From the sequence record ON528730: a stretch of DNA of 64,000 bases; one strand, given 5' to 3'. This document shows, one piece after another, positions 6,601 to 52,225 of this stretch. How positions within the stretch are numbered: position 1 is the first letter of the stretch; the number at the start of each line of letters is the position of its first letter. This DNA is from Shigella phage ESh20. The notes beneath the pieces are model-generated. The model ran no database searches, was not told the DNA's origin, and saw nothing but the letters and a program-made list of their open reading frames with translations. A program made the translations under genes and the position numbers.

Positions 6601-8563
6601 TATCCTCGTTAATCACAGGTGGAATGGTGGAGCTTTCACGTTGCTCTTGTGTGTAAATCTCTCCAGATTCACGGTCAAAATCAACATCTTCATAGTGTGG
6701 CATAGAGTCATCATAATGGTCTTCAGCCTCACCAATACCAAACTGCTGACGAATATTCTCTGCTGCACCATCAATATCAACACCACATCCAGCAGCCTTT
6801 ACAAGACGGCCTGTATCTGGATTGTACCAAGTGTGACCAGCAATACCAGTTGATTTACCATGACGACGACATTTCGTTAACTTGATTTTTGTCAAGTTCT
6901 TTTTAACAGGGTCTGGGTCAACCTTGTTACGCATAAGTAAAATGTTGTTCATGGAAATCTGGAAGTATGCACCAGAACCCTTGATATCTTCTTCAGAAAT
7001 ATCACCACCTTCAGAGTTAGCCTTTTGACCACCTGCACTCTTACGAACGTGACACACGTTTACCTGAGCATACTGATAACGCTTACAGCGACGAAGTAAC
7101 TCAGACAGAACTTCTTCTTCATCTGTATCAGAGCGTGACAGCGCCAATGTAATAGGGTCAAGGATGATAATCTTACAATCAAGACTGTTAACCAGATAGT
7201 CAACAAACTCCAGCAGGTTATCTTGGTCAATTGCCCCTTGGTGGTCTACGATGTGGATACGACGACCTTTTGACAACTCAGCATGTGCAACCTTAATCTC
7301 ATCCCAATTACGCTCATCGTAAGGAATCTCTGAAATCTGCTTACTAAGATGGATTGCACAGAGCATTTCCATAAGTTCTTCGTAAGTATCCTCTACAGGA
7401 ATTACACCGATGTTGTACTCAGTATCCTTCCATGCTTTGTAAATCATTTCACGAGTATATGCAGATTTACCTACAGATGAAGGTGCAGCAAGGGTTGTAA
7501 TCTCGCCTAAACCATACCCGCCATAAGTCAGCTTATTCAAATCCCCGAAAGAATCTGGGAAAGGAATTAAAGGAATCTGACCACGATTCTTCATAGCATC
7601 GAAACCATCTGCAAAGTTCTTGATACCAGCAGGGCAGTAACGAGGTGCATTGTAGATTCGTTGTTTAAATCCTTCTAAGACTGTATCTTTGTCTTTGAAG
7701 AACTTAGTCCACCACTCACTAAGGTCTTTAATACCCTCAGGATACTGGAACAGTCTTACTTTCTCAATAGGTAAGATACCAGCAGCTTCCTTAGTTGCTT
7801 TAGCCCCTGCTTCATCATTATCAAAGCATAGGTAAATCTCATCAAAGGAAGTAATATACTGATAGTTCTCTTTGATGGACTTAACATTAGCACCGGATGG
7901 TACAGAAACGTGGCAGTAATTCTTACGTCTAGACTTATCTTTAATTGCTAAAGAAGTCATGTAGATTGCTGTAGCACATTCCATCTCACCTTCCCAGATG
8001 AAAAGACGGTTACCACCTTCTGGAGCAATCCATGAACCGAACATAGCCAGTTCACCTTTAATATCCCCAACACCACCAGAAAAGTCTTTCAACTTCCCAC
8101 GTAAGTGCTCTTTATGATAGTCATCTGGATATTTGTGACGAACACGATAACCTACATGTTGCAACTTCCCATCTTCATCCTTTTTGTATGTTGGATAGAA
8201 ATGTGCATCAATATCACCGTTATCATCAATATCAACTTTAATACCAAGACGCTCAAGGACTTTTGCAGGAATCTTCCTGTCTTTTAAATCCATTGCTTCT
8301 AGGTTTTCTTTCACATCATCTAAATCCATACCACGAAATGTACGGTTTTTATTCTCTGAACCTGAAGTATGAGTACTCACAATCTGCCCTTTATCAAAAT
8401 CCCACTCTGGAAAACCTTTTCCACAACTGAAACATGTCATTGAATATGAACCGTCATCATGACGATATATAGAACCTGCATCTGAAGATAAACATTGAGG
8501 GCGTGGACATGCACAGTGACCTACAAATGTTCCAGCATCTTTCAGTTTTCTCTGTTTAGCCAT
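6572..8563 (-). CDS. DNA primase/helicase (T7 gp4-like)
   Basis: N-terminal Cys4 zinc motif CPRPQC...CFSCGKG, TOPRIM-like FDNDEAGAKA, Walker A APSSVGKSAY, Walker B-like IIILDP. Confidence 0.9.
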   Translation of the reverse strand: MAKQRKLKDAGTFVGHCACPRPQCLSSDAGSIYRHDDGSYSMTCFSCGKGFPEWDFDKGQIVSTHTSGSENKNRTFRGMDLDDVKENLEAMDLKDRKIPAKVLERLGIKVDIDDNGDIDAHFYPTYKKDEDGKLQHVGYRVRHKYPDDYHKEHLRGKLKDFSGGVGDIKGELAMFGSWIAPEGGNRLFIWEGEMECATAIYMTSLAIKDKSRRKNYCHVSVPSGANVKSIKENYQYITSFDEIYLCFDNDEAGAKATKEAAGILPIEKVRLFQYPEGIKDLSEWWTKFFKDKDTVLEGFKQRIYNAPRYCPAGIKNFADGFDAMKNRGQIPLIPFPDSFGDLNKLTYGGYGLGEITTLAAPSSVGKSAYTREMIYKAWKDTEYNIGVIPVEDTYEELMEMLCAIHLSKQISEIPYDERNWDEIKVAHAELSKGRRIHIVDHQGAIDQDNLLEFVDYLVNSLDCKIIILDPITLALSRSDTDEEEVLSELLRRCKRYQYAQVNVCHVRKSAGGQKANSEGGDISEEDIKGSGAYFQISMNNILLMRNKVDPDPVKKNLTKIKLTKCRRHGKSTGIAGHTWYNPDTGRLVKAAGCGVDIDGAAENIRQQFGIGEAEDHYDDSMPHYEDVDFDRESGEIYTQEQRESSTIPPVINEDNDDCPFETD

Positions 8564-43562: not shown

Positions 43563-45179
43563 TTAGCGTCTTAGCCCCTGATATGGATTACTCTTCATAA
43601 TATCTGTATGAGCACCCATTGAAGGTGGCTTGAATAGTTTAACTTCGTTTAGACTGTTGAAAGCATCACTGGTAGCATCCACTTGGTCATCCTTAGTACG
43701 ACCATCACCACAAAAACCTTCTAGTTCTTGGAAATATGCTTCATTCCAAGAGCCTCTAACAATTTTGACAAGTCCTGCCTCAGAAGCAGCAGAGAAACCC
43801 GCAAAACGGGTGACTTTATCTTTATTTGTTGGTTTAGCTCTTGCTCGGAAACCTTTCTCAGCAAGTTTTCTAATAAGGGAGGTTGCGTAGGATTTACCAG
43901 CAGCGCCGGGGTCTTGAGGGATAAAAATACCTGTGCGCTTACCATCACCTTCAGCAGTTTGGTTAATTTGTGTTTCAACTCCAGAAGGTCTATCTCTAAA
44001 TCTTACTACGTTAATCACATAATAGCAACCATCTTTTTTAGATTTACCCATTTTAACACCTGCTGTCCAGTCAGGGTTAGGGTTAACCTCAGAAGGTAAT
44101 GTTGCTGCTAAGTCCCATGCTCTTACGTCAAATACGTCTGCTGGAACACTATCAACAATTTCACACCATTGCCTTTGCCAGTAGTTTGAACCTTCAGCAC
44201 GAGCTTTCCAGTTACCAAAACGTAAACGTGCAACGTTAACTGGTGTGTTGTTTTCTAATTTACCACGATACTTAGGTTCAAGGAAATCTAGAATAGGGTT
44301 GTCATCAATTGTACCGGAAATAAAGGTATATGTTTGAGGAATCTCAAGAGGGAACATTTCAAGAATTTTATCTCTATCCCAATCAGAAACCATGACACCA
44401 TCATTCATAACATACCAACGAATCCTACCGCACTTCTCTGGGTCTGGATATCCAGCATCATCTAGGAAAGGTTCTACCCAATCATAAATAAAGTGGTCTC
44501 TATCTGGGTTCATTGAGATTTTCATATATGAGTCACCTTCAGCACCAGAACGTAAACGTGTCTGAAGATATGAAATCTGTGAAGCCGAGAAGTGTGTACC
44601 TTCGTCGAAATAAATAGCTGAGTATTCGATACCTTGGTGACCTTCTGAGTGTTTCTCAAGTTCCAAATAAGTAAACTTGATAGTTGCTCCAGAAGGGAAA
44701 GTGATAGTCATTTTCTGTTCATGTGGAACTCCACCAAACTTACCAAATAACTTCTTAGCCGCAGGCCATAGACCACCTTGTAACTGTGTTGTATTTCGAC
44801 GGAAATAAACAGCATTATAGTTTGGGTCTTCAATGAACCTTAGTGAGTCCATTAATAGGGCAGCAGTCTTACCAGCACCAGCAGCACCACCATATAGTAC
44901 CAAGTCAGCATTAGTGTTCAAGAATACCTCTTGAGAGCCAGGCTGTGGAGCTACATAGTTCTTGTCAGTCATCAATTTAAAGATGAGTCTTACTTGGTCT
45001 GGGGTGTATCTTAATAAAGTCAGAATTTGAGTTGGAAGGAATTTAGAGGGGTCTTTACCAAAGGATTTGATAATATCTTTTACTTCTTCAGAAAGCCCCA
45101 ACTCACCTGCTAGGACTTTCCTTACATCTTCCACTCGCTTCTGCTTAATAACATTTAAGTCCATTAAGCACCTCTGCAA
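43563..45179 (-). CDS. Terminase large subunit
   Basis: Walker A LYGGAAGAGKT near N-terminus; size 538 aa; adjacent to portal. Confidence 0.85.
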   Translation of the reverse strand: MQRCLMDLNVIKQKRVEDVRKVLAGELGLSEEVKDIIKSFGKDPSKFLPTQILTLLRYTPDQVRLIFKLMTDKNYVAPQPGSQEVFLNTNADLVLYGGAAGAGKTAALLMDSLRFIEDPNYNAVYFRRNTTQLQGGLWPAAKKLFGKFGGVPHEQKMTITFPSGATIKFTYLELEKHSEGHQGIEYSAIYFDEGTHFSASQISYLQTRLRSGAEGDSYMKISMNPDRDHFIYDWVEPFLDDAGYPDPEKCGRIRWYVMNDGVMVSDWDRDKILEMFPLEIPQTYTFISGTIDDNPILDFLEPKYRGKLENNTPVNVARLRFGNWKARAEGSNYWQRQWCEIVDSVPADVFDVRAWDLAATLPSEVNPNPDWTAGVKMGKSKKDGCYYVINVVRFRDRPSGVETQINQTAEGDGKRTGIFIPQDPGAAGKSYATSLIRKLAEKGFRARAKPTNKDKVTRFAGFSAASEAGLVKIVRGSWNEAYFQELEGFCGDGRTKDDQVDATSDAFNSLNEVKLFKPPSMGAHTDIMKSNPYQGLRR

Positions 45180-45185
45180 ATAGAA

Positions 45186-45392
45186 TTATTCAGAAACTTC
45201 TTCAGATTCCTGTTTAGGTTCTACACCAAACTTTTCATCTACTAAATTAAGAAGTTTATCCATCGTTGCTTCTTGTGGGTTAATACCAGTTGCAACAATT
45301 AAACGTTCAGCCACAGCCATTACAGTTGCCTGAAGCATCTGAGCCTGTTTCTGAGTTTCATATAGTTCTTTGTAAACATTAGTCTCGTTCAT
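45186..45392 (-). CDS. Hypothetical protein (68 aa)
   Basis: ORF track. Confidence 0.4.
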   Translation of the reverse strand: MNETNVYKELYETQKQAQMLQATVMAVAERLIVATGINPQEATMDKLLNLVDEKFGVEPKQESEEVSE

Positions 45393-45430
45393 TGTATTTC
45401 TCCAAAATTAAAGTTATAGTGATTCTCCTG

Positions 45431-45454
45431 AAAAAAGACGGTGCAGAGACCGTC
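45431..45454 (-). terminator. Rho-independent terminator (minus strand) closing the tRNA array
   Basis: Minus strand GACGGT-ctctgc-ACCGTC followed by TTTTTT. Confidence 0.55.
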
Positions 45455-45611
45455 AAGGAGAAACCACAATGTATGCCAGAGACATACTGTATAGGTCTTC
45501 CCATAAAGTATAACTCTATAAAAAAGCCCTGTCTAAAAATACTCTCCGGTAGCGAAAGGGAGAATACTCATAGCAGGGCATAATAACTTTGAGAGAGATA
45601 TTAATATAAAT

Positions 45612-45687
45612 TGGAGTATCGGAAGGGACTCGAACCCTCATAAACCTGTTTTGCAGACAGGCACATAACCATTTCTGACACCGACAC
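45612..45687 (-). tRNA. tRNA-Cys (anticodon GCA)
   Basis: Acceptor GTGTCGG/CCGATAC, discriminator U, anticodon loop CUGCAAA, T-arm GAGGG-TTCGAGT-CCCTT, CCA encoded. Confidence 0.7.
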
Positions 45688-45693
45688 ATAATT

Positions 45694-45786
45694 TGGAGGA
45701 AGATACCAGACTTGAACTGGTACGCCGATTTCTCGGTTACTGGCAGTTTAGCAAACTGCTCCCTTACCTTTTAGGGTTAATCTTCC
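45694..45786 (-). tRNA. tRNA-Ser (anticodon GCT), type II
   Basis: 7-bp acceptor, T-arm ACCAG-TTCAAGT-CTGGT, long variable arm, anticodon loop TTGCTAA, 3-bp D stem. Confidence 0.65.
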
Positions 45787-45787
45787 A

Positions 45788-46522
45788 TTATTTGTTCAGA
45801 GCTTCTTTCATCTCTGGAGTTGCGATAGTATCAATCACACCAGTTTTACATGAATCATCAAACCAGCTTGGTAGAACATTCGCAAGGAAACCATTAATAT
45901 TTGTTTTCAGGTATTCTGCAATCAGTGCTGCTTCATCTGCAATCATCTGAGTTACTTCATTAGCATATGCAGTAATCTTTGCAATACCCTCATTAATCGC
46001 TGTAACGGCCTGTGTAGCGAGTTCAGAGATTGTATCTAGTCCTTGGTCGATTGCATCTTGCAAATCGCTTAGAACGCTATTTACAGCGTCTATGGAGGTA
46101 TTAATCAAATCCATCGCTTTATTACCGTACTCGGTAGCTACGCCCATGATACCGCTAAACGGTGTACATCCAACCTGTTCACCTGCTGCCCCCATAACGT
46201 TAGAGTAACCTTTAGCCACTTGCATACGTTGTGAAAACTCATCTACAGACTTTTGTCCATACTCAGTAAGTGTACTTGTCGTTGAAGTTGTACTTCCAAG
46301 GCTTGTTGTGAAGCTTCCTAATAAGGCTGTTGTCAGTCCAGCAGCAACTAAAATCTGTTGTGTAGCTGGGTCTGTTACAGAACTAATTGAGTTAACTAAT
46401 GATTGAGAGGCAGCTATAGTACCACCAAGAACTGCTGCACCAGTAATAAGAGGGTTTGAGAAACCATTACCAGTTTTAAGGAGATTAAAAATCTCTTTAC
46501 TTTGTTCTGTCATCTCTTTCAT
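45788..46522 (-). CDS. Hypothetical protein embedded in tRNA array (about 244 aa)
   Basis: ORF track frame; start moved to ATG 46522 to avoid overlap with tRNA at 46539. Confidence 0.45.
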   Translation of the reverse strand: MKEMTEQSKEIFNLLKTGNGFSNPLITGAAVLGGTIAASQSLVNSISSVTDPATQQILVAAGLTTALLGSFTTSLGSTTSTTSTLTEYGQKSVDEFSQRMQVAKGYSNVMGAAGEQVGCTPFSGIMGVATEYGNKAMDLINTSIDAVNSVLSDLQDAIDQGLDTISELATQAVTAINEGIAKITAYANEVTQMIADEAALIAEYLKTNINGFLANVLPSWFDDSCKTGVIDTIATPEMKEALNK

Positions 46523-46538
46523 TATGCACCTATAAAGT

Positions 46539-46614
46539 TGGTAGCCCATCGGGATTTGAACCCTGTTCTCATGTTTTTCAGACACGCGCTTTAACCATAT
46601 AAGCTAATTGAGCT
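46539..46614 (-). tRNA. tRNA-like gene, tentative tRNA-Phe (anticodon GAA), imperfect T-stem
   Basis: Anticodon arm CGTGT-CTGAAAA-ACATG, T-loop TTCAAAT with only 3 clean stem pairs, acceptor pairing 6/7. Confidence 0.4.
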
Positions 46615-46621
46615 ATTAAAT

Positions 46622-46698
46622 TGGGGTGACCTACGGGAATCGAACCCGTATAGACCATGTTCACAGCATGGGTCATTATCCATTTATGATAAGGCCAC
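46622..46698 (-). tRNA. tRNA-His (anticodon GTG)
   Basis: Acceptor GTGGCCT/AGGTCAC, discriminator C, T-arm ACGGG-TTCGATT-CCCGT, anticodon loop CTGTGAA. Confidence 0.7.
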
Positions 46699-46729
46699 AT
46701 TTAAGGACTCTCGTAAGAACCCTTAGAAG

Positions 46730-46805
46730 TGGCAGCAGTATAAGGATTTGAACCTTAATCTTTCAGCTTCAGAGGCTGGAGCATTGCCAGTTATGCTATA
46801 CTGCT
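46730..46805 (-). tRNA. tRNA-Gln (anticodon CTG)
   Basis: Perfect 7-bp acceptor, T-arm TAAGG-TTCAAAT-CCTTA, anticodon loop CTCTGAA. Confidence 0.6.
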
Positions 46806-46811
46806 AATATT

Positions 46812-46890
46812 TGGTACTCCATATCGGATTCGAACCGATACATAACACAGATTTTAAATCTGGCCTCTCTGCCAATTGGAGTAATGGAGC
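46812..46890 (-). tRNA. tRNA with Leu-type anticodon TAA (tentative), short variable region
   Basis: T-arm ATCGG-TTCGAAT-CCGAT, anticodon loop TTTAAAA, Leu-like D-loop containing CCAATTGG. Confidence 0.45.
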
Positions 46891-46892
46891 AT

Positions 46893-46968
46893 TGGCGGGG
46901 GATGATGGAATTGAACCATCTTCTTCGATTTCAAAGACCGAGGTTTTAACCTTGTAAACTAATCCCCT
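46893..46968 (-). tRNA. tRNA-Gln (anticodon TTG)
   Basis: T-arm GATGG-TTCAATT-CCATC, anticodon arm TCGGT-CTTTGAA-ATCGA, A1:C72 mismatch at acceptor end. Confidence 0.55.
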
Positions 46969-47194
46969 AACGAACTCTTGAAAGAATATATGCGTTATTG
47001 CAAGTATCCTTATTTTCAGGTAGTGATGTTTCGAAGATAACTTGCTTAAGTTCTAATCCAGCAAAGTTATAAACAATCTTTCTAACTTCTAACGGGTCAC
47101 ATTGCCAACCAACCGCTATAAAGAAAGTATCTCCAAATCTACCTGTTTCAATCTTGTGGTCATCTTTATGTTTTTCAACTATGAGTTTATACAT
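46967..47194 (-). CDS. Hypothetical protein within tRNA array (75 aa)
   Basis: ORF track; fills gap between two tRNAs. Confidence 0.35.
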   Translation of the reverse strand: MYKLIVEKHKDDHKIETGRFGDTFFIAVGWQCDPLEVRKIVYNFAGLELKQVIFETSLPENKDTCNNAYILSRVR

Positions 47195-47212
47195 AATGTT
47201 ACCTATTAAATT

Positions 47213-47289
47213 TGGTGCAGAATAGAGGATTCGAACCTCTAACTAACAACTTCGTAGGTTGCTGCTCTATCCATTTGAACTAATTCTGC
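47213..47289 (-). tRNA. tRNA-Arg (anticodon ACG)
   Basis: Perfect acceptor GCAGAAT, T-arm AGAGG-TTCGAAT-CCTCT, anticodon loop CTACGAA. Confidence 0.7.
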
Positions 47290-47467
47290 AATATCCTTTT
47301 GAGATTCCTGTCTAGCTCTCTTCTTATCTCTTCTGAGAAAGCGTTTACGATGGTCTGTACGCCATTTGTAATAATCTTCTTCACCATCATGTGCTGCACA
47401 GCAGCCACAACTTGCAATTTCAACTTTACCATGTCTACCATAAGGCTTCATAGGAATCTCCTAAAAT

Positions 47468-47545
47468 TGGTGTTCCAAGACGGATTCGAACCGTCACTAA
47501 TACAAGGTTTGAGCTTGCATCCTCTGCCAATTGGGATACTGGAAC
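47468..47545 (-). tRNA. tRNA with Leu-type anticodon CAA (tentative), short variable region
   Basis: T-arm GACGG-TTCGAAT-CCGTC, anticodon arm GCAAG-CTCAAAC-CTTGT, D-loop with CCAATTGG. Confidence 0.45.
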
Positions 47546-47546
47546 T

Positions 47547-47621
47547 TGGTACTCGCTGAAGGACTTGAACCTTCTTCACCAACTTGTAAGGATGGAGCTT
47601 TACCATATAAACTAAGCGAGC
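47547..47621 (-). tRNA. tRNA-Val (anticodon TAC)
   Basis: T-arm GAAGG-TTCAAGT-CCTTC, anticodon loop CTTACAA. Confidence 0.55.
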
Positions 47622-47716
47622 TTTGAAGAGGTCTGAAGCTGTGCCGCTAACTCAACTCCGTGGAATTTGTTACGGTCTTCAGTTGACTCAAGCGGTCTTT
47701 CACTTGACCTCAAAAT

Positions 47717-47792
47717 TGGTGCTCCCACAAGGATTCGAACCCTGATAAGTTGCTTACAAGGCAACCGTAATAGCCAATTATACGATAAGAGC
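47717..47792 (-). tRNA. tRNA-Thr (anticodon TGT)
   Basis: T-loop TTCGAAT, anticodon arm GTTGC-CTTGTAA-GCAAC, acceptor with two G:U pairs. Confidence 0.55.
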
Positions 47793-47798
47793 ATTATT

Positions 47799-47873
47799 TG
47801 GAGCATCCAGAGGGAATCGAACCCTCAACCTCAGTTTGGAAGACTGTAATTTTCCCGTTTAAACTATGGATGC
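47799..47873 (-). tRNA. tRNA-Gly (anticodon TCC)
   Basis: Perfect acceptor GCATCCA, T-arm GAGGG-TTCGATT-CCCTC, anticodon loop CTTCCAA. Confidence 0.7.
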
Positions 47874-47879
47874 ACTAAT

Positions 47880-47955
47880 TGGTGGAGAAGCAGGGAATTG
47901 AACCCTGTACTTAAGTTTGCAAAACTTATGTTTTAACCATGTAAACTACATCCCC
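47880..47955 (-). tRNA. tRNA-Ala (anticodon TGC)
   Basis: T-arm CAGGG-TTCAATT-CCCTG, anticodon loop TTTGCAA, G3:U70 wobble pair characteristic of tRNA-Ala. Confidence 0.7.
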
Positions 47956-47961
47956 ATTGTT

Positions 47962-48037
47962 TGGTACAGGTGGAGGGAATTGAACCCATCATCTTACTGA
48001 TTAAGAGTCAGCCGCATAACCATTTTGCTACACCTGC
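47962..48037 (-). tRNA. tRNA-Lys (anticodon CTT), T-stem with only 3 clean pairs
   Basis: Acceptor GCAGGTG/CACCTGT, anticodon arm CTGA-CTCTTAA-TCAG, T-loop TTCAATT. Confidence 0.5.
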
Positions 48038-48043
48038 ATTAAT

Positions 48044-48120
48044 TTGGTACACCTAGAGAGATTCGAACTCACACTGAGCAGATTCTAAGTCTGCTGCCTC
48101 TTCCAATTGGGCTATAGGTG
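48044..48120 (-). tRNA. tRNA with Leu-type anticodon TAG (tentative), short variable region
   Basis: Anticodon arm GCAGA-CTTAGAA-TCTGC, 3-bp D stem with loop CAATTGGAAGA. Confidence 0.45.
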
Positions 48121-48376
48121 CATTAAATCTTTGTAGAGAACTGCTAAGACGCCAAAGCAACAATGGTATCAAATGCCTTAACAATTCTCTAAAAAGACCT
48201 ATTGGCCTTTGCATAGTCTTGCTTAATCCGGTGACTAGAACCTTTGGAGAGCTTGATACTATCTCTTCTCCGTGACACCTACTAGGTGCTTTACCAGTGC
48301 CGTGTACGCCAATACACGAAGAGGAAACCTGAAACACTTGCTCGAACAAATAGTCTCAGCTTTAAATCTTATTAGG

Positions 48377-48464
48377 CGGTAGATAAAGGAGTCGAACCCT
48401 CACCGTATCTCTACAATGGCAATAGTTTTCAAGACTATTTGGCTTCCATTAGCCGCTACCTACC
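48377..48464 (-). tRNA. tRNA-Ser (anticodon TGA), type II, CCA not encoded
   Basis: T-loop TTCGACT, long variable region, anticodon arm ATAGT-CTTGAAA-ACTAT, acceptor GGTAGGT/ATCTACC. Confidence 0.5.
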
Positions 48465-48477
48465 CCTAATAAGACTT

Positions 48478-48560
48478 TGGCATGGGACGGAGGATTCGAA
48501 CCCCTTTGAGTAAGTTTTGGAGGCTTACGCACATGCCTTAGTGTCTTAACATCGTCCCAT
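48478..48560 (-). tRNA. tRNA-Trp (anticodon CCA), enlarged D region
   Basis: Perfect 7-bp acceptor ATGGGAC/GTCCCAT, T-loop TTCGAAT, anticodon loop CTCCAAA, about 8 extra nt in D region. Confidence 0.5.
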
Positions 48561-48724
48561 ACTATATTTCGAAGCTTACCCTGTTATCTCAACACTGTCA
48601 AGCTTCTTCTCAGATTATTTACATGTTCTGGAAAACATGAGATACAGACCACCTCCTTATGAGATTGACTCTTTCAAGTCAATGCGGAGACCCATAAAGG
48701 TCGTCATAGTAATCTGCTAACTAA

Positions 48725-48843
48725 TTGGCAGTCAAGGTAGGAGTCGAACCTACTTACTATTAAAGGGAGCTACCCTTCAGCAACTATCCGACTTTCGTTT
48801 ATCTCTTAACGCGTATCCAAGATAACTTACTCGTGTTGTCTTG
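48725..48843 (-). ncRNA. tRNA-like element with about 40-nt internal insertion (not a canonical tRNA)
   Basis: CCA-rc and 7-bp acceptor AGTCAAG paired with CTTGACC 119 nt apart; canonical T-arm GTAGG-TTCGACT-CCTAC; no canonical anticodon arm identified. Confidence 0.4.
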
Positions 48844-48854
48844 ACCATTAAAAT

Positions 48855-48931
48855 TGGCACACCCTACAGGATTCGAACCTGTAACTGACGGTTTAGAAGA
48901 CCGTTGCTCTATCCGTTTGAACTAAGGGTGC
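48855..48931 (-). tRNA. tRNA-Arg (anticodon TCT)
   Basis: T-arm ACAGG-TTCGAAT-CCTGT, anticodon arm ACGGT-CTTCTAA-ACCGT. Confidence 0.7.
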
Positions 48932-49178
48932 ATTATCTTTAAAGGCTCTCTTAGAAAACCCTTAAAGATGCCCACTTTATTAATCATACCGTGGGCTAGT
49001 ACGCCAAATTCTTTAACAGGGAGTTGGAATACCCTGCTGGTGTTTAGCCTATTAAGCTACTGCCAGAAAAACATTATCGTTTGCATTTATTTTTAAGTTT
49101 TTAAAATAGACGCTACGCTAACGAAAACTAAGGTTATCTTAAAGTGGTCACATCTGAATGTCAACAACTTTATGAAAT

Positions 49179-49254
49179 TTGGTACTGGTAGGTGGAATCG
49201 AACCACCGATATTCCCTTATCAGGGGAGTGTTATAACCTTCTTAACTATACCAG
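49179..49254 (-). tRNA. tRNA-Ile (anticodon GAT)
   Basis: T-arm GGTGG-TTCGATT-CCACC, anticodon loop CTGATAA. Confidence 0.65.
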
Positions 49255-49256
49255 CA

Positions 49257-49333
49257 TTGGAGGTTCAGGTGGGAATCAAACCCACATTCATAGGGCTTAT
49301 GAAACCCTTGCATTACCTTATCTGCGACTGAAC
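49257..49333 (-). tRNA. tRNA-Met (anticodon CAT), elongator-type (G1:C72 paired)
   Basis: Perfect acceptor GGTTCAG, T-arm GTGGG-TTTGATT-CCCAC, anticodon loop TTCATAA. Confidence 0.6.
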
Positions 49334-49415
49334 CATTATAAGTTGCCCCTTTGTAGAGAACTGATTGAGTGGGTGTTTCCAGCCGCGCATGTGTTCTTCA
49401 GTTAAGGGGCGAATT

Positions 49416-49491
49416 TGGTAGAAGTGGAGGGATTCGAACCCGTCGCCTGTCAGATTAAAAGTCTGCCGCATCACCATTCTGCTACACTTCC
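49416..49491 (-). tRNA. tRNA-Lys (anticodon TTT), same T-stem pattern as Lys(CTT)
   Basis: Anticodon arm CAGA-CTTTTAA-TCTG, T-loop TTCGAAT with 3 G:C pairs. Confidence 0.5.
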
Positions 49492-49914
49492 ATTAAATCA
49501 TCTTTGCAGTAACCTACGCAAACCTTGCTAAAGGGTTTGTAGAGTCATCTCTTATAAGCTAATCTAGAATCATGCTCAAGAGACTCTTCGGCACTCATGG
49601 GACGACTGGTTAGCTCCATAAGTCACTGCAAAGAGGATTACCAGACCGTATTTATCTTAAGTGCTTCCATTACACCAACACGCCGTAACGTGTGAAGGAA
49701 TCGAACCTTCGCCTTTTCTTTATAAGAGAAATAGATTGTTTATTGTTTGCTGTAAACGGTCTTCTGTAAAATTGTTGGAACCAGACCAAGTTTTAAATTT
49801 TTCAAATTAAATTGGCTTGAAATATTAAAATTGCTTGCTGTATTTGGTCTTCTGCTCCTTTAAAGAATACTCGTAAGAACTCTTTAAGGGAGGGGCTAAA
49901 AAGCCCTCTCAAAT

Positions 49915-49991
49915 TTGGCGGTTACGAAGGGATTCGAACCCTCATCATCCTCCGTGACAGGGAGGTATTTTGACCAGTTAAACTACATAAC
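49915..49991 (-). tRNA. tRNA-Asp (anticodon GTC)
   Basis: T-loop TTCGAAT, anticodon arm CCTCC-CTGTCAC-GGAGG. Confidence 0.7.
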
Positions 49992-49997
49992 CTTTAT

Positions 49998-50085
49998 TTG
50001 GTGCGCCGTGAAGGAGTCGAACCTCCCGAGTCATAATGACAAGTGATTTACAGTCACCACCGCTTCCATCTACGGGATAACGACG
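49998..50085 (-). tRNA. tRNA-Tyr (anticodon GTA), type II
   Basis: T-loop TTCGACT, long variable arm hairpin, anticodon loop CTGTAAA, 3-bp D stem. Confidence 0.6.
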
Positions 50086-50154
50086 CATTTTATTCTATTC
50101 AGGCTAAGGACTTGCACCTTACAAATCGGTGAGCAATCGCTTCTCTCCCAAATC

Positions 50155-50231
50155 TTGGCGGTTAGTCAGGGATTCGAACCCTGTACCATTCGGTTAACAG
50201 CCGACCGCACATGCCTTATGTGCTTCCTAAC
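50155..50231 (-). tRNA. tRNA-Asn (anticodon GTT)
   Basis: T-arm CAGGG-TTCGAAT-CCCTG, anticodon arm TCGG-CTGTTAA-CCGA. Confidence 0.65.
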
Positions 50232-50315
50232 CATGTTAGTATTACCAGACCGTATCTTTTCATTTTTTGCCTATAAAAAATTTTAAGTGTTTGCTGTAAA
50301 CGGCCTTCTGTAAAT

Positions 50316-50392
50316 TTGGAGGCGGGTGTAGGAGTCGAACCTACCGATAACATGCTAATGAGACATGTGAGACACCCTTTCTCTATACCCGC
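50316..50392 (-). tRNA. tRNA with CAT anticodon and unpaired position 1:72 (initiator-like or Ile2-like)
   Basis: T-arm GTAGG-TTCGACT-CCTAC, anticodon loop CTCATTA closed by T:G pair, U1:C72 mismatch. Confidence 0.5.
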
Positions 50393-50479
50393 AATTCTTA
50401 ATGACCAGACCAAATCTTTTTTGGATTTCTATGCGCGAAATTGAAAAGTTTGTTTGCTGTAATTGGTCTTCTGTCAAAA

Positions 50480-50557
50480 CTGGCATTCCCGAAGGGACTT
50501 GAACCCTCAAACCACACCTTGAAAGGGTGTTGACTTTACCTAATTTGTCTACGGGAA
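50480..50557 (-). tRNA. tRNA-Glu (anticodon TTC)
   Basis: Perfect acceptor CGGGAAT/ATTCCCG, T-loop TTCAAGT, anticodon arm ACACC-CTTTCAA-GGTGT. Confidence 0.7.
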
Positions 50558-50563
50558 TATAAT

Positions 50564-50643
50564 TTGGTCTCCGTTGAAGGATTTGAACCTTCGACCCCTT
50601 GCTCCCAAAGCAAGTGCTGCTAAACCAAACTGAGCTAAACGGA
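50564..50643 (-). tRNA. tRNA-Pro (anticodon TGG)
   Basis: Perfect acceptor, T-arm GAAGG-TTCAAAT-CCTTC, anticodon arm CTTGC-TTTGGGA-GCAAG. Confidence 0.7.
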
Positions 50644-50775
50644 GATAATCTTTTTAACAACCTATGTAACAACTATAACACTATTTTTTAGTGTCTGTCA
50701 AGAGGTTTTTTAAAATAATTTGATTTATTTCAGAAAACTTCTTTTTCGTTTCTATGTAGAACATATTAAAGGGTA

Positions 50776-50806
50776 TTAAACACTTTGTCAATACCCTTTT
50801 TAAAAC
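50776..50806. terminator. Hairpin between vWA gene and tRNA array
   Basis: AAGGGTATT-aaacactttgtca-AATACCCTT followed by TTT. Confidence 0.4.
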
Positions 50807-50809
50807 TTT

Positions 50810-52225
50810 TTACCAATCGTAGCGTTCAATAATTACTGCTTTGAGCATTACGCTGATAGGGTCAAACTTCTCACCACCAAGCAAAGCTTTTAAAGTGGCT
50901 GGAGAGAAACCAGATACCATCGCTACACCGTTATCCTTTACAGACACTTCGCAAGTACCGTTACGGTTTGCTAAGTACCAGAATACCAGTTGTGGCATCT
51001 CATATCCAGCTTTCTTGTACTTTTCTTGAATTGCTTCAAAGTTAGTACGACCATCTGCTCCATCAACCTGATTAAACTGCATATCAGAGAAGATGATAAG
51101 CTTACTAGGCATCTCTTTCTGAGTCAAGTTGTTTTTAACACCAGTCTCAAGGATTCTTGCAAAAGCAGCTTGTAGGTCAGTTGAACCATACTCTACATGA
51201 CTCTTCACTTGACGTAAGCGAGTCTGTAAATCACCACTCAATGTGATGAAGTGAGGTCTGCTAGAGTAAACCATCAATTCATCTTTAAAGCAACCTGTAT
51301 TACGTTCTGAAACGTACAGGGCTAAAGATACACCAATGTCTAGCGCTGTAACAGAACCATGTCGCTCCCAAGTCATAGATGAAGATACATCTGCCATGCA
51401 CAGAATGTTCTCACCCTCTTTCATCCAGTTTGGTAAAGCTTTCCACTGCTCATTTGCAACGGTTGCATTACCATAACCGACTGACTTTGTAATGTCATAA
51501 GGGTAGACTGCACCAGCATTAATCTTTGTCTCACCTTTAGTCAGTGCTGCAATGTATGCTGCATAACGCTCACCATCTTTACGACTGAAGAGTTTTTGAT
51601 AACGTGCAGCAGCCAGTGAAGGAAGCTTGCTGTAATCAATCTCTCCGAACTCATTTGCTGAAATCTTTTGTTCAACAGTATCAGACAGTGCTGACAGAAG
51701 AACTCGATACTGCTTCTCTGAAAGATTTGCAAACTTACAGAAACGACGAACAAAACGCATGTGTCGTGATTTTACTCGTGGTAACCATTTTGCTGCCAGA
51801 GCCGATGTTGCAGGGTCTAACAGTGCAGCTTCTAAATGCTTGAAAGCATCTGTTTCGTAACGTGTACCAACAAAGATTTTAAAGTCGTCATAACGACCTA
51901 AATCAGAAATCTTGTCCATGATACGTAACACTTGGAACTCATCAAGAATCCCGTCAGAGATTGCTTTAGTAAGAGTATAACGGAACGCTTTACGCTCACC
52001 CATACCTTCTCGTGCATCTCGCATATGTAACAGGATTCGAACTGCTACATCAATATCTTCTCGCATTGCCTTGTAAAACAAGTTTGGAAGAACTTCTACG
52101 TTTGTTCTGCTTGAACCAGCAGCTTTGTAGAAATCTACCAGTGCAGACATTGAAGAGGTGTGGTTAACAGCACCGTTTTCAGTTAAACCTGCATGTAAAT
52201 GCGAGTGTTTAAATAATTCGCTCAT
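50810..52225 (-). CDS. vWA-domain protein with N-terminal domain of unknown function
   Basis: MIDAS-like DxSxS motif in ILCMADVSSSMTWERHG at about residue 279; 471 aa; adjacent to tRNA array. Confidence 0.55.
   Translation of the reverse strand: MSELFKHSHLHAGLTENGAVNHTSSMSALVDFYKAAGSSRTNVEVLPNLFYKAMREDIDVAVRILLHMRDAREGMGERKAFRYTLTKAISDGILDEFQVLRIMDKISDLGRYDDFKIFVGTRYETDAFKHLEAALLDPATSALAAKWLPRVKSRHMRFVRRFCKFANLSEKQYRVLLSALSDTVEQKISANEFGEIDYSKLPSLAAARYQKLFSRKDGERYAAYIAALTKGETKINAGAVYPYDITKSVGYGNATVANEQWKALPNWMKEGENILCMADVSSSMTWERHGSVTALDIGVSLALYVSERNTGCFKDELMVYSSRPHFITLSGDLQTRLRQVKSHVEYGSTDLQAAFARILETGVKNNLTQKEMPSKLIIFSDMQFNQVDGADGRTNFEAIQEKYKKAGYEMPQLVFWYLANRNGTCEVSVKDNGVAMVSGFSPATLKALLGGEKFDPISVMLKAVIIERYDW

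Follow-up and report, generated by a model that had tools for sequence, protein, structure and literature searches.

Candidate genes for structured non-tRNA RNAs in the tRNA operon of Shigella phage ESh20 and their possible link to a Ro60-like protein

Introduction

Four intervals in the transfer RNA (tRNA) operon of Shigella phage ESh20 (sequence record ON528730) are best explained as minus-strand genes for structured RNAs other than tRNA, here called RNA-A to RNA-D, which would be small RNAs probably working together with a Ro60-like protein encoded directly upstream of the operon. Judging from the sequence, we put the probability of this explanation at about 0.6. The whole stretch of DNA analyzed, 64,000 nucleotides (nt) long, is referred to as the window; in the 4-kilobase (kb) array region queried it is 99.1% identical to Shigella phage Sf17 (Mooglevirus, Ounavirinae), in whose RefSeq record the four intervals carry no annotation. 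Together with four modules in other parts of the same operon, M1 to M4, they appear to make up a suite of at least eight non-tRNA RNAs.

The intervals were first flagged in an initial annotation made from the sequence alone, in which they were taken to be stable small RNAs or processing structures. All of the features described there are present, with coordinates off by 1-4 nt. It overlooked the more telling neighbors, that is, the Ro60-like gene and the modules, in which a stem is followed by UUACAGCAA. Of the leads to come from the analysis, the most interesting is that these modules resemble Dictyostelium Class I RNAs.

Four non-tRNA elements in the tRNA operon

The operon (45612-50644) comprises 26 tRNAs, every one of them called by ARAGORN on the minus strand and having an encoded CCA, so that the spacers should be read as the reverse complement of the plus-strand motifs in which they were first described. 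The linkers between tRNAs are A/U-rich and 1-7 nt long, for example AAUUAU, AAUAAU and AUUUAAU, and linkers of this tRNA type are also found at both ends of each non-tRNA element. No tRNA is present in 48122-48374, 49335-49415, 49492-49636 or 47622-47716 (ARAGORN; Rfam, E ≤ 1), and neither ARAGORN nor the Rfam model RF00005 calls a tRNA or pseudo-tRNA in the four intervals. No Rfam family matches RNA-A to RNA-D, including any riboswitch, ribozyme or small RNA family, in a search of 44500-52000 at E ≤ 1.

With their limits corrected, three of the gaps extend from tRNA-Ser-UGA to tRNA-Leu-UAG (48122-48374, 253 nt), from the Lys-UUU to the Met tRNA (49335-49415, 81 nt) and from the Thr to the Val tRNA (47622-47716, 95 nt). 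The remaining one, described as a third gap, does contain the reported inverted repeat of 10 base pairs (bp), at 49501-49510 and 49623-49632, which is the core of 21-nt arms; the interval itself, however, makes up just the 3′ third of a longer gap of 424 nt (49492-49915), in which further elements are found. The four RNAs are placed as follows.

48122-48374, minus strand: RNA-A, in four parts (5′ hairpin, CGUGUA..UACACG hairpin, core and 3′ hairpin)
48325-48363, minus strand: variable 5′ hairpin of RNA-A
48301-48318, minus strand: CGUGUA..UACACG hairpin of RNA-A
About 48203-48322, minus strand: invariant core of RNA-A, about 115 nt
48125-48200, minus strand: 3′ hairpin of RNA-A, 26 bp, with the 15-mer strand at 48129-48143 and its partner at 48182-48196
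49345-49410, minus strand as suggested by context: RNA-B, with helices GCCCCUU/AAGGGGC and GAAGAAC/GUUCU
49499-49634, minus strand: RNA-C, a closing stem of about 24 bp (arms 49617-49634 and 49501-49518) around three hairpins
47628-47711, minus strand: RNA-D, a closing helix GAGGUC/GACCUC around two nested repeats

The conservation of RNA-A to RNA-D is close to that of the tRNAs and exceeds that of coding DNA; for comparison, identity to Felixounaviruses is 84-100% for most tRNAs of the array and 75-77% for the DUF7217 coding gene inside it.

RNA-A is present in at least 253 GenBank phage records, in which it is left unannotated, given as a spurious ‘hypothetical protein’ or labeled tRNA-Leu, and never as an RNA gene. 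Its overall identity to Felixounaviruses is 75-77%, and its core is identical in 27 of the 27 IMG/VR contigs holding RNA-A, those of Suspviruses included. The 5′ hairpin occurs in 17 different sequences, nearly all of which are predicted to form a hairpin. In the 3′ hairpin, which is rich in G-U pairs, 94.9% of the cells are paired and both partners have changed in seven pairs, which none of 500 shuffles equals, while the apical loop UUGUUGCU (48156-48163, minus strand) stays invariant as the surrounding stems change. In the lineage L060, whose Ro-like protein is 62% identical, an internal helix CUAGUC/GACUAG has turned into CUAGCC/GGCUAG, and the upper part of the 3′ hairpin is wholly replaced with its base CUUUGUAGA/UCUACAAAG retained. 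Compared with dinucleotide shuffles, which serve as the reference for all folding scores below, RNA-A folds at -73.8 kcal/mol (z -3.3) on the minus strand and -51.9 kcal/mol (z -1.0) on the plus strand, and the corresponding values of its 3′ hairpin are z -5.9 and z -3.1.

Two side observations concern the same RNA. The loop UUGUUGCU is complementary to AGCAA(A)CAA of the modules and to AGCAA of the RNA-C loop, which may reflect a kissing interaction or chance. In the relatives L003, L008 and L012, in which the Ser-Leu gap is about 720 nt, a 150-codon open reading frame (ORF) for an HNH homing endonuclease lies between the intact 3′ end of RNA-A and tRNA-Leu, not inside RNA-A.

Compensatory change is also found in RNA-C. 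Between Mooglevirus and Felixounavirus, five pairs of the closing stem have changed on both sides, with an extra A-U pair only in Felixounavirus, and so has one pair of the inner hairpin, which shows more changes in L060 and L061: its stem varies from AAACC/GGUUU to CAGAC/GUCUG, CAGUC/GACUG (L060) and UGUUC/GAACG (L061) with the loop kept. This hairpin (49514-49542) is the last of the three, and its conserved loop reads CUU(U/A)AGCAA. Folding of RNA-C gives z -4.2 on the minus strand and z -3.5 on the plus strand. On the basis of their G-U pairs and the asymmetry of their folding energies, RNA-A and RNA-C are assigned to the tRNA-sense strand.

RNA-B, which is found only in Moogleviruses, L006, L015 and L060, contains both parts of the long-range stem of the initial annotation, GCCCCTT at 49345-49351 and AAGGGGC at 49404-49410 in the plus-strand spelling. 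Both of its helices flank an invariant apical segment CGCGGCUGGAAACACCCAC (49369-49387), and compensatory changes together with a paired deletion are seen across them. RNA-D is 91-93% identical to its Felixounavirus counterparts, with a mean column identity of 96%. The two imperfect repeats reported for its gap are located at 47693-47708 (GUCAAGUGAAAGACCG) and 47673-47687 (GUCAACUGAAGACCG), and each precedes a helix.

The checks proposed along with the flagged intervals have come out unevenly. Conservation of the stems in relatives is borne out by the compensatory changes in RNA-A, RNA-B and RNA-C but not in RNA-D, which is nearly invariant and has none; folding favors the tRNA-sense strand for RNA-A and RNA-C, whereas RNA-B folds better on the plus strand and RNA-D equally well on both. 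The idea of small RNAs or processing structures has accordingly held up insofar as the intervals behave like discrete structured RNA genes, with RNA-D standing apart for its lack of covariation.

The 15-mer shared by two gaps, CTTTGTAGAGAACTG, is real (48129-48143 and 49349-49363; CAGUUCUCUACAAAG in the RNA sense). Each copy forms the 3′ strand of a terminal helix that lies immediately 5′ of a tRNA: copy 1 pairs with CUUUUUAGAGAAUUG (48182-48196) in the 26-bp hairpin of RNA-A, and copy 2 is the 3′ side of two helices in RNA-B. About two exact 15-mer pairs are expected by chance over the whole window, so a pair alone is unremarkable; both copies lie within about 2.3 kb of spacer sequence at the same relative position. 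When up to three mismatches are allowed, 14 matches to the 15-mer are found against 3.5 expected, a number reached by 0 of 100 shuffles. Its exact identity is lineage-specific, the second copy being CAUUUCUCUAC in Sf17 and the first being AAGUUCUCUAAAAAG in Felixounavirus. Thus, the 15-mer is not a conserved motif that links the two gaps but a coincidence of two helix strands confined to one lineage.

The Ro60-like gene and the modules of the window

A gene that may tie these RNAs to a known type of ribonucleoprotein is situated at the head of the array.

50810-52225, minus strand: Ro60-like protein gene with DUF2828 and DUF7788 (Pfam), directly upstream of the array

The AlphaFold2 model of its product has a predicted local distance difference test score of 88. 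A Foldseek search of the PDB with this model gave Ro60/TROVE structures for all of the top 11 matches, including phiLo Ro60, Xenopus Ro60 and Deinococcus Rsr, over the whole length (E 1e-9 to 1e-6; template modeling score about 0.4-0.6), and comparison of the protein sequence with the PDB gave no match. The product is therefore predicted to adopt the full Ro60 fold, a TROVE ring plus a vWA domain. DUF2828 homologs occur in 709 phage records, some of them labeled ‘Ro-like RNA binding protein’, and the family extends to giant viruses of protists (Pithovirus, CroV, Marseillevirus and mimivirids). The RNAs of the array lie 0.2-4.6 kb downstream of the Ro60-like gene on the same strand.

Such proteins have been studied in two other phages. 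In Bas63, a Felixounavirus, gp130 is Ro60-like, is encoded upstream of the tRNAs and counters the ppl defense system, and as to Y RNAs the authors went no further than the guess that these might be among the annotated tRNAs (PMC11482910). The Ro60 of Thermus phage phiLo binds two phage-encoded Y-like RNAs and the host PNPase (PMC12135203).

Four modules, the number per genome in Ounavirinae, stand between this gene and RNA-C.

50402-50477, minus strand: M1 in the Glu-Met spacer, with outer helix UGAC/GUCA, internal loop AGAA/UG and stem GACCAA/UUGGUC, followed by UUACAGCAA
50242-50314, minus strand: M2 in the Met-Asn spacer
49777-49858, minus strand: M4, inside the Asp-Lys spacer
49638-49770, minus strand: M3, a module handle around an apparent permuted tRNA mimic, ending 4 nt before RNA-C

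They have a common layout, in which an outer helix is followed by an internal loop of A-N-A-A opposite U-G, a 6-bp stem opening with G, UUACAGCAA right after the stem, a variable interior, and the complementary strand and UGG. The copies show compensatory differences, such as GACCGU/ACGGUC versus GACCAA/UUGGUC. The interior of M3, which lies outside the flagged intervals and scores 30.1 bits with the Rfam tRNA model, appears by inspection to contain a V hairpin and then a T arm at 49694-49710, a closed ‘acceptor’ hairpin at 49678-49693 and a D arm at 49661-49676. This is the order of the YrlA topology (Chen et al. 2014), and the closed hairpin in the middle covaries among relatives.

A candidate role of the modules as sigma-70 promoters was rejected: hexamers resembling TTGACA/TTTACA do overlap the outer helix, but the -10 positions are poor and the complementary 3′ strand covaries. 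Moreover, copies also occur downstream of the gene and in tandems of three to seven.

Modules beside DUF2828 genes in distant phages

Modules adjoin a DUF2828 gene, on its strand, in phages of Klebsiella, Aeromonas, Vibrio, Mycobacterium, Listeria, Campylobacter and Staphylococcus together with three environmental lineages.

Klebsiella phage FBKp34: three to four copies directly downstream of the gene
Aeromonas phage LAh_9: six copies in tandem upstream, plus others
Vibrio phage phi-pp2: at least two copies
Mycobacterium phage Snenia: three copies downstream
Listeria phage List-36: three copies upstream
Campylobacter phage F358: two copies upstream
Staphylococcus phage SEP9: three copies downstream
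Three environmental lineages: modules present

The family appears to be defined by an (A/U)AG start, a covarying stem of 5-8 bp, (U)UACAGCAA right after the 5′ strand, a variable interior and a CUG(U/G) 3′ end. Its members fall into two length classes, about 55-63 nt and, with an inserted domain, about 87-136 nt. In L061, whose Ro-like protein is 54% identical, there are four copies with quite different stems.

Per locus, a strict pattern finder gives 4-7 matches in sense and 0-1 in antisense, against 0.05-0.3 in shuffles. In 75 further diverse IMG/VR loci (642 kb), 76 sense and three antisense matches were found, with 2.6 in shuffles, and 57 of the 76 lie within 600 nt of the DUF2828 gene. 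A stem of at least 6 bp is present in 49% of the motif instances, compared with 14% when the 5′ strand is shuffled. For 29 instances from eight lineages, the stem is 91.6% paired and the covariation score is 0.90 versus 0.22 after shuffling (0 of 500 as high), pairs being counted on length-matched trimmed sequences since MAFFT misaligned the 3′ ends of full-length modules. Module and Ro60-like gene are statistically coupled.

When modules are compared with Rfam, the best non-tRNA match in three phage lineages is RF01414 (Dicty_Class_I_RNA), a model built solely from Dictyostelium sequences. It scores 29.6, 28.0, 25.7, 23.4, 18.9 and 18.4 bits on the six tandem copies of LAh_9, 25.2 and 23.6 bits on modules of FBKp34, and 21.3, 22.2 and 21.2 bits on M1, M2 and M3, respectively. 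On large modules, which are the counterparts of M3, the YrlA model (RF02553) reaches 39.6 bits in FBKp34 (E = 2.9e-5 over 56 kb) and 39.3 bits in Snenia. This suggests that two distant phages have a tRNA mimic of the YrlA type on the same handle, next to a Ro60-like gene.

RNA-A to RNA-D possess neither the module handle nor a tRNA mimic. RNA-D, RNA-B and the inner hairpin of RNA-C may, to judge from a weak similarity, carry a degenerate form of the module 5′ motif: the GAAGACCGU core of the RNA-D repeats matches the module 5′ strand ACAGAAGACCG(U), and in RNA-B the helices have AACUGAAGAAC on their 5′ side. A faint resemblance to a collapsed module is seen in the inner hairpin of RNA-C, which reads (C/U)UACAGACC-UUAAGCAA-GUCUGGGUAG in Felixounavirus and CUACAAACC-CUUUAGCAA-GGUUUGCGUAG in the window.

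Some further genes and RNAs of these loci may be mentioned. An RtcB-type ‘tRNA splicing ligase’ gene lies 1.3 kb downstream of the Ro60-like gene in List-36, and an RNA ligase 2 gene lies 3.7 kb downstream of it in LAh_9. LAh_9 (7334-7450) and L062 (12003-12116) have ‘tRNAs’ 114-117 nt long in which a long stretch is inserted at the position of the anticodon loop; in LAh_9 this insertion contains a UUACAGCAA motif.

Proposed function and alternative explanations

A possible course of events is as follows. The RNAs would be co-transcribed with the tRNAs from a site upstream of the array, which together with a terminator-like site (45454-45437) frames the operon.

50672-50701, minus strand: sigma-70-type promoter-like site TTGACA-18-TG-TATAGT just 5′ of the first tRNA, with 11 of 12 matches and an extended -10, by consensus match only

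They would then be released by the host nucleases of tRNA maturation: RNase E would cut within the linkers and RNase P at the 5′ end of the tRNA that follows, and the 3′ end would be trimmed. Because A/U-rich linkers of the tRNA type bracket each RNA, these nucleases would release discrete and stably folded molecules; the long helices of RNA-A and RNA-C (24-26 bp) may in addition be sites for RNase III. The modules would bind the Ro60-like protein, and the RNAs would serve as its Y-RNA-like partners, scaffolds or regulators, RNA-A to RNA-D possibly being lineage-specific accessory members of the particle or of an anti-defense function. Seen in this way, the four RNAs would be unnamed additions to the stable RNAs known in phage tRNA clusters, and the modules with the Ro60-like gene would represent a new form of the Ro60/Y RNA system.

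A number of observations weigh against this picture. Profile searches with nhmmer find RNA-A, RNA-B and RNA-C only out to the L060 lineage, while the Ro60-like gene and the modules reach much further; the tie of these RNAs to the protein thus rests on position and a weak motif resemblance, and, as lineage-specific elements, they would have joined a Ro-like gene and a module whose pairing is much older. The canonical Ro-binding motif GNCGAAN0-1G/CGAA is absent by inspection from RNA-A to RNA-D and from M1-M4, the modules having ANAAG, a stem and then UUACAGCAA in place of GNCGAA/CGAA. No module attains the RF01414 gathering score of 41.5 bits (range 18-30 bits), and the FBKp34 and Snenia modules both stay below the YrlA gathering score of 69 bits. 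The YrlA model gives no match in the array region (E ≤ 1) or on M3 (E ≤ 10), apart from 21.6 bits over tRNA-Phe/His. The 29 module instances were chosen for having a stem, which limits what their covariation count can say. RNA-B folds better on the plus strand (-30.5 kcal/mol, z -4.4) than on the minus strand (-21.8 kcal/mol, z -3.6), so that context alone speaks for its strand, and one substitution in Sf17 disrupts an RNA-B pair. RNA-D has no pair changed on both sides and folds equally well on either strand (z -3.6 minus, z -3.4 plus), which leaves its fold a prediction. Finally, the tRNA genes of Bas63 are mostly dispensable on laboratory hosts (PMC11482910).

The spacers could instead be purely cis-acting punctuation that insulates the tRNAs from misfolding and guides RNase III, RNase E and RNase P, the excised pieces being degraded without any function of their own. 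Helices of 24-26 bp would suffice for RNase III, a role in processing agrees with the A/U-rich linkers and with the placement of each element immediately 5′ of a tRNA, and RNA-B can be missing while the flanking tRNAs stay. Most tRNAs of the array, however, are just 1-7 nt apart and need no such spacer, and punctuation leaves unexplained both the invariant single-stranded core of RNA-A, about 115 nt, and the invariant loops UUGUUGCU, CGCGGCUGGAAACACCCAC and CUUWAGCAA between freely varying helices. We therefore regard this possibility as rather unlikely, though it deserves to be taken seriously. The lengths of the gaps, which are near multiples of a tRNA slot (81, 95 and 248-253 nt), the degenerate tRNA-like pieces in other gaps (48478-48560 and 48726-48793) and the module-like fragments in RNA-D and RNA-B would fit decaying relics of tRNA genes or modules that remain similar through recent ancestry or through recombination between co-infecting phages. 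Decay is difficult to reconcile with conservation equal to that of the tRNAs and above that of a coding gene in the same array, with compensatory maintenance of helices over lineages whose Ro-like proteins are just 54-62% identical, or with the lack of a T arm or cloverleaf in any of the four intervals, and relics seem improbable.

A role at the DNA level, as recognition or insertion sites of homing endonucleases, promoters, terminators or other protein-binding palindromes, might be suggested by the HNH gene in the Ser-Leu gap of some relatives and by a promoter-like site in the neighboring Ile-Arg gap (49164-49136). It is nevertheless hardly more credible than decay and, if anything, slightly less so: many helix positions are G-U pairs, which would turn into A-C mismatches in a DNA cruciform or on the opposite strand, the fold of RNA-A is more stable by 22 kcal/mol on the minus than on the plus strand, no minus-strand promoter-like or terminator-like site lies within the four intervals, and the HNH insertion is beside RNA-A rather than within it. 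That the intervals encode small proteins is very improbable indeed. RNA-A is indeed overlapped by some shorter ORFs and by one of 98 codons that starts with TTG (48053-48349, minus strand); the latter extends into tRNA-Leu, insertions and deletions among relatives are not multiples of three, the core of RNA-A lacks any variation of the synonymous type, and the interval was left unannotated by several depositors. Genes for structured RNAs that probably act with the Ro60-like protein are thus preferred as the explanation of the four intervals.

Other features of the operon

Several other elements of the array are worth recording. The spacer between the Ile and Arg tRNAs (48932-49179, minus strand; 248 nt) is 83-92% conserved among the relatives compared; it has the promoter-like sequence TTGACA-17-TAAGAT at 49164-49136 (minus strand) and a 14-bp hairpin at its end. 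Weak, sub-threshold matches to the tmRNA model (48998-49238) fall in this gap and lean on tRNA-Ile, and a tmRNA was rejected. A hairpin of the form AAG(G/A)GUU(C/U)U-loop-AG(A/U)(G/A)(U/C)CUU is present in three copies on the minus strand (46703-46724, 48941-48963 and 49862-49884), and the one in the 31-nt Gln-His spacer is 96-100% conserved.

Two tRNA-like elements on the minus strand are called by neither ARAGORN nor Rfam. The one at 48478-48560 has an encoded 3′ CCA and a CCA (Trp) anticodon in an irregular loop, and a regular tRNA-Trp is present in this region in some Felixounaviruses. The other (48726-48793) is a shortened tRNA-like molecule of about 68 nt with a good T arm and an encoded 3′ CCA. 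The array also contains the DUF7217 membrane-protein gene (45788-46585) and two small ORFs on the minus strand, 47239-47451 and 46967-47194 (70 and 75 codons, respectively), the former of which is Cys-/His-rich and overlaps by about 50 nt with an annotated tRNA-Arg(ACG).

Implications

The spacers of phage tRNA arrays have been taken as empty in annotation; here they seem to hold at least eight conserved RNA genes that are nameless in databases, in a phage family used in typing and therapy. The modules provide concrete candidate RNA partners for a Ro60-like protein whose role against a defense system has been demonstrated in Bas63. An RNA made of a stem and UUACAGCAA beside DUF2828 genes in phages of Proteobacteria, Firmicutes and Actinobacteria would be half of a gene pair comparable in reach to Ro60/Y RNA. 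The resemblance also gives a direct hypothesis for the partner and the function of the Dictyostelium Class I RNAs, which are abundant and developmentally important and have been mechanistically unexplained since 2004.

It is tempting to go one step further and to propose, tentatively and with somewhat more doubt than belief, that the DUF2828/DUF7788 proteins are a second widespread branch of Ro60 with an RNA partner class of its own, the same as the Dictyostelium Class I RNAs. If so, the Class I RNAs would not be unique to social amoebae but would be the ‘Y RNAs’ of DUF2828-type Ro proteins, and the RNA-protein pair would exist in phages of at least three bacterial phyla. It could extend to protists, because the protein family is also found in giant viruses of protists and in eukaryotes. 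DDB_G0281243, an uncharacterized protein pulled down with a Dictyostelium Class I RNA, would then be the prime candidate for a eukaryotic DUF2828 partner. RNA-A to RNA-D would be accessory RNAs of the particle, and the loop UUGUUGCU of RNA-A might regulate the modules via AGCAA(A)CAA. Text searches of the literature, whether for the motif or for a connection of Class I RNA with Ro60, gave no relevant result.

Comparison with known systems

The closest precedent for the position of RNA-A to RNA-D is given by species 1 and 2 of phage T4 (rnaC and rnaD), which like them are non-tRNA RNAs occupying slots of a phage tRNA cluster on the tRNA strand. In T4 these RNAs share transcription and processing with the tRNAs, and no function is known for them. 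Unlike RNA-A to RNA-D, rnaC has a T-arm-like hairpin at its end. Homology between the two sets was rejected, as nhmmer profiles of RNA-A to RNA-D have no match on the T4 locus and the folds differ, and no Ro60-like gene is annotated in the 6.5-kb T4 stretch around the tRNA cluster.

With Bas63, the window shares an orthologous Ro60-like gene (gp130) in the same position upstream of the tRNAs. The difference is that no RNA partner was named there, whereas the candidates proposed here sit in unannotated spacers. The Salmonella rsr-yrlBA locus (YrlA, RF02553) and phiLo Ro60 with Yrl1 and Yrl2 are similar in that a gene for a ring-shaped TROVE-plus-vWA protein adjoins small-RNA genes. In their RNAs, too, the 5′ and 3′ ends come together in a stem that has an asymmetric, purine-rich loop. 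Some of these RNAs have a permuted tRNA mimic with T, closed-acceptor and D arms, which M3 appears to resemble in topology. In contrast to these systems, the protein of the window belongs to DUF2828/DUF7788 and not to Pfam TROVE, and its putative RNA partners have (A/U)AG, a stem and UUACAGCAA and lie within a tRNA operon.

The Class I RNAs, which have been reported to be unique to Dictyostelia, are characterized by an AAG start, an invariant 5′ G that opens the covarying 6-bp stem between the two ends, the 11-nt motif CCUUACAGCAA, an interior that varies, a CUGU end and a length of 42-65 nt (PMC7919456). The modules appear to share, item by item, the AAG start, the invariant G that opens a short covarying end-joining stem, (CC)UUACAGCAA right after the 5′ strand, a variable A/U-rich interior, the CUG(U) 3′ end and a length of about 55-65 nt. 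An end-joining stem conserved in structure rather than in sequence is found in M1-M4 and their phage relatives and not in RNA-A to RNA-D. As to the 11-nt motif, M1-M4 have (A/U)UUACAGCAA with an AAG start and a CUGG end, and in the copies of the Aeromonas and Listeria phages the motif reads CCUUACAGCAA or UAACAGCAA, the start is UAG or AAG and the end is CUGU. Such resemblance may be due to homology or to convergence. The modules differ from the Class I RNAs in that the spacing from G to CAGCAA is 1 nt shorter, in the extra outer helix of the Ounavirinae copies, and in that the phage copies are arranged in operons whereas each dictyostelid gene has its own upstream promoter element, DUSE.

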